From assembly GCF_054482595.1 (NCBI RefSeq), contig NZ_CM137008.1: 64,000 nucleotides of DNA, one strand, 5' to 3'. The translations under genes and the position numbers were made by a program. The notes beneath the pieces were generated by a model, which ran no database searches, was not told where the DNA came from, and was given only the letters and a program-made list of their open reading frames with translations. Below are positions 41,065 through 55,644 of this stretch, piece by piece (position 1 is the stretch's first letter; each line of letters opens with the position of its first letter).

Positions 41065-41091
41065 GCCACGGTTTATACCGTGGCTTTTTTT
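41065..41091 (+). terminator. Intrinsic terminator downstream of allE
   Basis: Hairpin gccacggtttataccgtggc followed by a run of 7 T. Confidence 0.75.
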
Positions 41092-41099
41092 GTAACATT

Positions 41100-41128
41100 G
41101 CCTGATGCGCTTCGCTTATCAGGCCTAC
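41100..41128. repeat. REP element
   Basis: gcctgatgcgcttcgcttatcaggcctac, a canonical REP palindrome, between allE and glxK. Confidence 0.7.
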
Positions 41129-41249
41129 ATGATCTCTGCAATATATAGAATTTGCGCGATTTTCAGGAAGGATATAGTGCTCATGCAGCATCCGGCATGA
41201 GCACTGCGCTCTTATACGAAATAAATCGCATCCGCTTTAAAGGTAAGGG

Positions 41250-52061: not shown

Positions 52062-52988
52062 ATGTTCGATCCAGAAACCTTGCGGACTTTCATTGCGGTT
52101 GCTGAAACAGGAAGTTTTTCAAAAGCGGCAGAACGATTATGTAAAACCACGGCGACGATCAGTTATCGCATTAAACTTCTGGAAGAGAATACCGGAGTAG
52201 CGCTGTTTTTCCGTACGACTCGCAGCGTGACGTTGACAGCGGCTGGCGAGCATCTACTTTCCCAGGCCAGAGACTGGCTGAGCTGGCTGGAAAGTATGCC
52301 AAGCGAGCTGCAACAGGTGAATGATGGCGTGGAACGCCAGGTGAATATTGTCATCAACAACCTGCTCTACACCCCCCAGGCCGTCGCCCAGTTGCTGGCG
52401 TGGCTGAATGAACGTTACCCCTTTACCCAGTTTCACATCTCCCGACAAATCTATATGGGCGTCTGGGACTCGCTATTGTACGAAGGTTTTGCGCTGGCTA
52501 TCGGCGTCACGGGAACTGAGGCGCTGGCAAATACCTTTAGTCTTGATCCCTTAGGATCGGTGCAATGGCGATTTGTCATGGCGGCGGATCATCCGCTGGC
52601 GAACGTTGAAGAGCCGCTAACAGAAGCGCAGTTGCGGCGCTTTCCGGCGGTCAATATTGAAGACAGCGCCCGCACCTTAACCAAACGCGTCGCCTGGCGA
52701 TTGCCAGGGCAAAAAGAGATTATTGTTCCCGATATGGAAACGAAAATCGCCGCCCATCTGGCGGGCGTTGGCATTGGTTTTTTGCCAAAATCACTTTGCC
52801 AGTCAATGATCGATAATCAACAACTGGTCAGCCGGGTAATCCCAACGATGCGCCCTCCTTCGCCATTGAGTCTGGCATGGCGCAAATTTGGCAGCGGCAA
52901 AGCGGTAGAAGATATTGTGACCTTGTTTACCCAGCGCAGGCCGGAAATCAGCGGATTTTTAGAAATTTTCGGCAACCCACGCAGTTAA
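52062..52988 (+). CDS. allS: LysR-family activator AllS
   Basis: 308-aa ORF with an N-terminal LysR HTH; divergent from allA. Confidence 0.88.
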
Positions 52989-53041: not shown

Positions 53042-54151
<1,110 letters not shown>

Positions 54152-54230
54152 TGAGGGACGTATTTGTATTAGTCGCGACTTGATCTGACACATGGCCTTG
54201 AAAGGTTGAGAGTTACCGGTTTTGATATGA

Positions 54231-54638
54231 GTGTCGAATCCTTATCCAAAACAAGAGGTAACTCTCATGCTTCATACTGCCAATCCCGTCATCAAACACA
54301 AAGCCGGTTTGCTCAATCTGGCTGAAGAACTCAGCAACGTATCAAAAGCCTGTAAAATCATGGGCGTTTCGCGTGATACGTTTTATCGTTACCGCGAACT
54401 GGTCGCTGAAGGCGGTGTGGATGCGCAGATTAATCGTAGTCGCCGCGCTCCTAACCTTAAGAACCGTACCGATGAGGCAACTGAACAGGCTGTTGTTGAT
54501 TACGCCGTCGCTTTCCCGACACATGGTCAGCACCGGGCCAGCAACGAGCTGCGTAAACAGGGGGTTTTTATCTCCGACAGTGGTGTCCGTTCTGTCTGGT
54601 TACTCCATAACCTTGAGAATCTCAAAAGACGATACTGA
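54231..54638 (+). pseudogene. Truncated transposase-like ORF (N-terminal HTH only); IS remnant, possibly ylbG-like
   Basis: 135-aa ORF with an HTH (LSNVSKACKIMGVSRDTFYRYRELV) typical of IS-transposase N-termini; no catalytic domain follows and no terminal inverted repeats were recognised. Confidence 0.5.
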
Positions 54639-54689
54639 ACAAATTTTATCAGGTGACGTTCCGTAAAAAGTTGTATGGAGTTCTCGATG

Positions 54690-54790
54690 CAGTCGGCGCG
54701 ACTATCAGTACCCCCGCTGAACCCTGGACTATCGGGCCGCCGTACTGGGGCATGTCACCCTGGCGTGCCGCTGGTTTTCCGCTAATGGTT
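54690..54790 (-). pseudogene. Orphan rhs 5' fragment (about 100 bp homologous to the start of the full rhs gene)
   Basis: Minus-strand sequence attagcggaaaaccagcggcacgccagggtgacatgccccagtacggcggcccgatagtccagggttcagcggg... is about 85% identical to the rhs start at 59730-59827; ATG is replaced by ATT and homology is lost after about 33 codons. Confidence 0.7.
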
Positions 54791-55152
54791 TATTTCCTCT
54801 TTCTTTCCCGGCAAGAATTTATTTTAATCCGGAAGGATTATTTATTTTCAGATAGGGACTCACATTAAACACGTAACATTTTAATTAATGCATGGCTGAA
54901 TATGTATTACACAATGTCAGATATCGTAAAAGACCAGTGCAATTCTATGTAAACTCTCTGACTGTTCATTTTATTTGTTGCTTCAGGGTCGGAACTCACC
55001 CTCAATAAACAACTGAATACGAGTAGATATTCATCGTCTGAGCTATATGGCTTTACACAATAGCCGACATGTCTTTTCTCAGTCAGGATTTTTACTTTTC
55101 CTCACTACGAAGTTGACGACTTCGATATGGGATAGACTCTTAATTCAAGCAA

Positions 55153-55644
55153 TTACTCTGCACAAGCATCAGGCAATCCAGCTCCAATATTTGTTATAAA
55201 ATAATGCGTAACATTAATTTCACCAACAAAAAAAAGATTTACGCTATCCCCTTGCCCTGGTATTTTACCATATTTACACCACACTTTTTTTGTATCTGGA
55301 TCATTCTTTGATACGATTTTCGCCACTTGTTCCCTGGCCCTCACCGTCAATGTTTTCTTAAACCTCCCCCCATCATCGATTGTTAGGGAAAAATAAGAAA
55401 AAAAATAATCATCTTCTACATTTGTGGATATTGATATATCCACCGCTACGTGCGGAAAAAAATCTGGGAGCCATGTAAAAACTCCATCATTTTCTGGTAT
55501 TGCCATATAGTTTATGTAATGCTTACTTACAAGAGATTCATCTTTGTGTAAATAAAGATAAGTAGTCACGCATAAAAAAACAACGATTATAATAGCAAAA
55601 ATAAATATTACCATCTTTGAGATGTTACTTGAGATAGCCACCAT
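55153..55644 (-). CDS. Putative Rhs immunity protein (RhsI-like), small protein with N-terminal TM helix
   Basis: 163-aa ORF immediately downstream of the rhs toxin tip; the ORF start overlaps the rhs stop by 20 bp, or an alternative Met11 start lies just after it; hydrophobic N-terminus ([22 protein letters not shown]); low GC like the toxin tip. Confidence 0.6.

Follow-up and report, generated by a model that had tools for sequence, protein, structure and literature searches.

A twice-deleted IS481 element joined to the 5' remnant of an rhs gene: a probable non-functional scar on the mnmH side of the E. coli RhsD island

Background

How does the start of an rhs gene come to lie, without the remainder of that gene, between a truncated transposase gene and the immunity-type gene of a complete rhs locus? 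Only 3' rhs fragments are discussed by Jackson et al. 2009 (PMC2935791). In their account, displaced orphans retain the core's 3' end together with a toxin tip and an immunity gene, and recombination can re-activate them (PMC2935791). A preliminary description of an E. coli locus had proposed that a second rhs copy once began downstream of a complete rhs gene and was destroyed by IS-mediated deletion or inversion. We conclude that the region in question, on the mnmH side of the RhsD island, is likely to be a scar without function, in which an IS481 element that has suffered two deletions is fused to what is left of a lost second rhs gene.

Results

Gene order and known annotation

The window (the whole 64-kb stretch of DNA analysed) is E. 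coli chromosome and is 100% identical to strain XH990. It has the gene order allS-mnmH-ylbG-ylbI-ybbD-...-rhsD-ybbP in common with K-12 MG1655, in which the same interval is annotated rhsD-ybbC-ylbH-ybbD-ylbI-ylbG-selU. The features that frame the scar are as follows.

52062-52988, plus strand: allS
53057-54151, plus strand: mnmH/selU
54159-60250, no strand assigned: accessory island relative to an "empty" mnmH-ybbP allele (homology to strain XYEH3783 stops at 54158 and resumes at 60251)
54787-55152, minus strand: AT-rich spacer from the ybbD-type gene to the rhs stub, defined by sequence composition (36% G+C)
54835-55017, no strand assigned: part of the spacer with a sequence match (85% identity) to the RhsE-region neighbourhood (nhoA/pptA) of another strain
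55153-55644, minus strand: intact YbbD-family gene of 163 aa, placed like an immunity gene immediately behind the rhs tip (NF011298, 163/163 positions, E 2e-112; precomputed PF26610 YbbD_head)
55625-59827, minus strand: main rhs gene, complete, 1400 aa, with an RhsD-type core (NF041261 RHS_core, 2718 bits; Pfam RHS_repeat, DUF6531 and RHS), followed by ybbP

The comparison with K-12 that the preliminary description had recommended shows that positions 54165-54786 are 100% identical to MG1655 and have identical neighbours there, making the two segments orthologous. Both remnants in this segment are already known as annotated features, namely ylbG (b0502) and the 96-bp pseudogene ylbI (b4632). 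PGAP annotates ylbG as an incomplete pseudogene ("missing C-terminus") and places a partial "hypothetical protein" of 96 bp exactly at 54691-54786, whereas the K-12 reference annotation still lists ylbG as a CDS encoding a "putative DNA-binding transcriptional regulator". Our literature search found no paper that discusses ylbI or ylbG as such.

Within the scar itself there is no difference from K-12; the differences lie next door only (the rhsD tip, ybbC and ybbD). The main rhs gene of the window continues straight into a tip that K-12 carries as the displaced orphan ylbH (55153-56324 and 56082-60300 compared with K-12). K-12 additionally contains 954 bp, made up of the rhsD tip and ybbC, between copies of a 243-bp core repeat, and carries a broken ybbD in place of the intact 163-aa gene found here. 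The two strains are thus one tip/immunity module apart, as expected from displacement or from repeat-mediated loss. An exact-protein look-up of YbbD for other genomic contexts returned the same context only.

The "empty" mnmH-ybbP interval of XYEH3783 consists of ~227 bp of REP-type sequence. At least three alleles of this interval occur in E. coli: an empty/REP-type allele, the Rhs island, and an island with Hcp/TssD and three DUF2931 genes. Elsewhere in the window, 32830-32942 and 41091-41197 are ~80% identical to the REP-type filler of the XYEH3783 empty site and are presumably REP/BIME copies.

An rhs start without an rhs gene

The scar proper is made up of the following pieces, of which the rhs fragment is the last.

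54165-54631, plus strand: IS481 piece 1 (IS nt 1-467), with the left terminal inverted repeat (TGTATTAGTCGCGACTTGATCTGACA), the 5' UTR and transposase codons 1-121
54267-54638, plus strand: ylbG ORF, 123 aa plus stop, the HTH N-terminal domain of an IS481 transposase (NF033577, Pfam HTH_29, K-12 and PGAP annotation; identical to K-12)
54623-54631, plus strand: 9-nt microhomology (CAAAAGACG) at the internal IS deletion, where two blastn segments overlap
54623-54691, plus strand: IS481 piece 2 (IS nt 931-999), transposase codons 277-299 (QKTILNKFYQVTFRKKLYGVLDA), from blastn and translation
54691-54786, minus strand: rhs 5' stub, equal to the K-12 pseudogene ylbI, codons 1-32 with ATT for ATG, 63.5% G+C (repeat search, alignment, K-12 and PGAP annotation)

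When the window was searched against itself, as had been suggested, the only long repeat was the one between 54690-54786 and the start of the main rhs gene at 59731-59827. This is a direct repeat of 97 nt with 79% identity, both copies lie on the minus strand, and the local blastn E value is 1e-17 to 1e-18. The claim of roughly 100 bp of minus-strand homology to an rhs start, with ATG changed to ATT, is therefore confirmed. Over 96 nt, the stub is 79% identical to the neighbouring main rhs gene, 78% to K-12 rhsD and 74-77% to K-12 rhsA, rhsB and rhsC; the closest E. coli type found, that of strain H5 / ATCC 8739, reaches 83%.

At the protein level, 28 of the 32 residues are identical to the conserved N-terminal start common to E. 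coli Rhs proteins. The four private replacements are M1I, T13P, R27L and G29V, whereas intact copies differ at 0-1 residues in the same stretch. We compared the stub with five intact rhs 5' ends (rhsA, rhsB, rhsC, rhsD and the strain H5-type rhs) and found 10-15 synonymous codon differences from each; the intact ends differ from one another by 4-17. This is the pattern expected if the stub represents a separate, once-constrained rhs lineage that was later inactivated and not a recent copy of its neighbour. What follows the first 32 codons in an rhs gene is missing here: neither a YD/RHS repeat core nor an RHS-associated core domain was found for the stub, the homology of which stops after codon 32 where the IS begins, nor is there an intact frame with a start codon, as the stub frame runs into IS sequence and stops at codons 46-47.

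Could the 97-nt similarity instead be due to chance, or to a non-coding element conserved among rhs genes, either a leader or a regulatory sequence? The shortness of the match is the one point that speaks for this reading. Homology begins exactly at the start codon and stays in frame through 32 codons, but in the 30 nt upstream only 8-15 of 30 positions are identical to other rhs leaders, so that a conserved leader fails as an explanation; the E value and the uniqueness of the repeat in the window also argue against chance. We give this reading practically no credence and count it as refuted, and the fragment is accordingly a coding rhs remnant, as first proposed, rather than a leader element.

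The stub is oriented like the main rhs gene and runs directly into the AT-rich spacer downstream of the immunity-type ybbD. This orientation and contiguity make a lost second rhs gene in tandem the simplest reading. The stub resembles an rhs core in its G+C content of 63.5%, and its Shine-Dalgarno-like AGAGGA lies in the spacer, 9 nt upstream. The RhsE-region counterpart of 54835-55017 is flanked by an uncharacterised 150-aa ORF on one side and an ISAs1 (H-repeat) element on the other. A terminator-like hairpin (GGCATGTCACCCTGGCGTGCC then GCTGGTTTTC) is present at 54749-54769 on the plus strand, antisense inside the stub, although the count of such sites is within shuffled expectation; in a scan of the region for consensus promoters and terminators, nothing exceeded that expectation.

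The IS481 remnant

As reference we used intact IS481 relatives from plasmids, which measure 1201-1203 bp, encode a 346-aa transposase and have the inverted repeats TGTATTAG…CTAATACA. The IS ends were taken from two intact elements, here called L005 (from an E. albertii plasmid) and L008, with a reference element of 1201 bp. Piece 1 is 96% identical to L005 and to an intact element on an E. coli plasmid (L006), and 86% identical to L008. Piece 2 is 94% identical to L008 and 81% to L005; its codons 277-299 survive out of frame, and an independent match of this piece falls within an annotated IS481 family transposase. Since the closest match is L005 for piece 1 but L008 for piece 2, the parent IS was a variant, or a mosaic, that was not recovered among these elements.

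The remnant has the left inverted repeat, the 5' UTR, codons 1-121 and codons 277-299 in common with the IS481-family elements of E. albertii and E. coli plasmids (1201 bp). Unlike them, it lacks ~463 nt of the interior (IS nt ~468-930), which hold most of the catalytic domain and the loss of which shifted the frame, as well as the last 202 nt (IS nt 1000-1201) with the right inverted repeat. The right repeat (…CTAATACA) is absent both at the locus and across the whole 64-kb window. A composite transposon with an IS481 copy at either end of the island was considered and rejected, since the window contains no second IS481 fragment anywhere. The only Rfam match at the locus is an IS-related one below threshold, to psRNA2 (RF02349) at 54093-54264 on the minus strand (E 4e-6; 31 bits, where the gathering score is 65). 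The match lies antisense to the left end of IS481 and the transposase 5' UTR, and the consensus of the family resembles an IS481-family terminus in reverse complement.

The 135-aa ORF at 54231-54638 (plus strand), in which the preliminary description had seen a truncated transposase-like gene, is the ylbG frame extended back to a GTG at 54231; translation of the transposase really begins at the ATG at 54267, which yields the 123 aa annotated for ylbG. Its transposase nature was borne out and can be assigned to the IS481 family: the ORF matches NCBIfam NF033577 ("IS481 family transposase") over profile positions 2-112 of 284 (E 2.8e-25) at 89 bits, which, the protein being truncated, falls below the full-length cut-off of 224 bits, and it matches Pfam HTH_29 with E 2.3e-20. 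Its protein sequence is 91.8% identical to those of annotated IS481 family transposases. Matches to both databases end at the HTH region, and no DDE (rve-type) catalytic domain was found in them; the ORF itself ends with "...KRRY*" at 54638, out of frame just past the internal deletion. With an HTH profile match but neither a DDE domain nor inverted repeats at both ends, the IS481 piece is a remnant and not a functional family member.

The preliminary description had also interpreted a 71-aa ORF at 54653-54868 as the antisense of the rhs remnant. This holds for the part after its start, which is antisense to the stub and its leader, but the first ~12 residues are in-frame transposase sequence (VTFRKKLYGVLD), and a Pfam search with the ORF gave no match. 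Neither the 71-aa nor the 135-aa ORF is a gene.

The junction between IS and rhs sequence

IS homology ends at 54691 and rhs homology begins at 54690-54692, without filler DNA. The transposase ORF does not abut the rhs fragment, contrary to what had been described: piece 2 intervenes, and the true junction is at ~54691 instead of 54638. There, IS nt ~999 of 1201 is joined to rhs codon 32, which places the joint inside the IS and not at its terminus. An imperfect microhomology is found beside it (CAGTCGG a few nt further along the IS, CAGTTGG in rhs), and the exact crossover is ambiguous by a few nt, corresponding to either a 2-nt overlap or an extra 3-nt loss beside CAGTCGG/CAGTTGG.

Transposition and classical IS-adjacent deletions end at the IS terminus. 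A joint inside the IS, in contrast, points to illegitimate recombination rather than to the transposase, and both breakpoints of the remnant look like microhomology-type illegitimate deletions. Of the proposed "IS-mediated deletion or inversion", the deletion is retained, whereas mediation by the IS is not supported, the joint being internal to the element and the right inverted repeat missing. There is no sign of an inversion either; we rejected this possibility because the stub repeats the beginning of the main rhs gene in direct orientation and adjoins the spacer without a break.

Sequence evolution of ylbG

The coding changes in ylbG differ from those between intact elements. Relative to the closest intact IS, ylbG has 10 non-synonymous and 3 synonymous codon changes, while two intact IS copies compared with each other have 10 non-synonymous and 43 synonymous changes. 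Across 12 E. coli alleles of ylbG, 6 non-synonymous changes were seen against 1 that is synonymous, together with one frameshift allele; the last is also cut by an IS3 insertion, with the 3' end of ylbG, the stub, the spacer and ybbD gone. Thus ylbG drifts neutrally and the region is dispensable.

These data bear on the possibility that ylbG is a domesticated HTH protein, acting as a regulator or as an inhibitor of transposition, with the stub and spacer as its target or regulatory region. The ylbG ORF is intact and identical in K-12 and the window strain, it is annotated in K-12 as a putative DNA-binding regulator, and two reports place signals nearby. Shimada et al. reported a "constitutive" in vitro RpoD (sigma-70) promoter, TCGTCA-19-TAAAAT, in K-12 that reads from ybbD towards ylbI (PMC3946193), and an FNR ChIP-chip peak has been labelled ylbI, with no FNR site listed (PMC1802558). 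The counterpart of that promoter in the window, at 55119-55089 on the minus strand, reads TCGTCA-19-TAAAAA, however, and has lost the final T of the -10 hexamer. The codon changes relative to the intact IS and within E. coli, the frameshifted and IS3-truncated allele, the PGAP assignment as an incomplete pseudogene and the absence of ylbG from about half of E. coli likewise speak against domestication, and we consider it very improbable. It is just as doubtful that a domesticated IS481 N-terminus might repress newly arriving IS481-family elements or control the neighbouring Rhs locus; if it did, the stub and spacer would be a retained regulatory region and not junk. We found no evidence for a function of the remnants.

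Distribution of the scar

The whole scar is present at ≥98.7% identity in 2,723-2,750 of 5,426 complete E. coli genomes, and the remaining half or so are without it altogether. We looked for its presumed precursors in the same genomes with chimeric queries. For an intact IS, the query consisted of the end of mnmH, IS piece 1 as in the window, and the remaining part of an intact element; a full IS beside mnmH was found in 0 of 5,426 genomes, as all matches with ≥80% coverage start at the IS end and sit at other loci. The parent IS variant is itself uncommon in E. coli: only 76 genomes contain full copies. For an intact second rhs gene, the query joined 700 nt of the closest rhs 5' region to the stub and spacer, and an intact second rhs after the spacer was again found in 0 of 5,426 genomes; the sole match at 95% coverage, in strain FT130, proved to be an artefact of a deletion inside the main rhs gene.

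An exact-match scan of GTDB species representatives for the stub leader likewise gave no intact copy; the sole leader match was an E. coli contig mis-binned in an "Alistipes" MAG. Two JGI metagenome scans for the leader followed by an intact ATG had no match, a weak negative given that an exact match was required. Two database records, the "uncultured Alistipes" MAG contig CASFSC010000074.1 and the 19-kb "Klebsiella oxytoca plasmid" record NZ_CP069916.1, are plain E. coli chromosome of this locus and are probably binning or assembly contaminants.

Several strains carry further changes. In strain E32 an IS3 is inserted at the position of window 54611, and the stub, spacer, ybbD and part of ylbH are gone; in other alleles an IS1 is inserted between ybbD and the rhs core; and in strain FT130 most of the main rhs gene is deleted. 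The island goes on eroding in other strains.

Because no intact or intermediate allele was found, the second rhs gene in tandem is reconstructed and not observed. The proposal that a second rhs once began here accordingly stands as far as the 5' remnant of a separate rhs lineage is concerned, with a tandem gene as its simplest reading, and stays an inference for the complete gene. Alternatively, a full second rhs gene might never have been at this site: the scar might have formed in a donor genome, or the 96 bp might have arrived as a patch, and the composite would have been imported ready-made with the RhsD island. This would fit with the identical scar in every carrier genome and the lack of any intermediate in 5,426 genomes, with a stub lineage that has no close E. 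coli relative (83% over 96 nt at best) and with the rarity of the parent IS variant. Nevertheless, the left end of the IS (54165) lies 13 nt past the mnmH stop and 6 nt inside the left edge of the island, that is, at the boundary between island and core, and insertion of the element into this chromosome is a simpler explanation for that position. We therefore regard import as unlikely; it differs from deletion on this chromosome only in where the deletion occurred and not in the identity of the pieces.

Discussion

The preferred history, a second rhs gene lost by deletion at this site, can be reconstructed as follows. Downstream of the main rhs/tip/ybbD module, and in the same orientation, there would have been a second rhs gene that belonged to a different lineage and had a short leader of its own. 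An IS481-family element of ~1.2 kb would have lain beside the mnmH stop codon, its transposase reading towards the 3' end of the second rhs gene. An illegitimate, transposase-independent deletion might then have joined IS nt ~999 to rhs codon 32, taking with it the right end of the IS, nearly all of the second rhs gene and any tip and immunity genes after it. A further deletion of ~463 bp between 9-nt microhomologies would have removed the catalytic region of the transposase and shifted the frame, leaving the 123-aa, HTH-only ylbG. Both remnants have since drifted neutrally and been inherited vertically by about half of E. coli. The data show what the pieces are, how far they extend and where they break, as well as their neutral drift, their distribution and the boundary of the island; we infer that a complete gene once occupied the place of the stub and that the deletions took place in this order.

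In one respect the stub is like the displaced rhs orphans, since it lies in the AT-rich region downstream of a complete rhs gene where rhs fragments accumulate (PMC2935791). Unlike them, it is the opposite end of the gene, codons 1-32, and has no core, tip or immunity gene; on the rhs strand, what comes after the stub is IS481 DNA and then mnmH rather than an orphan tip/immunity module. As only the 5' end is present, C-terminal displacement cannot have produced the stub.

The ylbG/ylbI scar is ordinary and of little wider importance. For annotation, ylbG is better treated as an IS481 pseudogene than as a "putative transcriptional regulator". For the Rhs family, the scar indicates indirectly that two tandem rhs genes belonging to different lineages were probably once present in the RhsD island, and it shows that, besides C-terminal displacement, rhs loci erode by illegitimate deletion and later IS activity.
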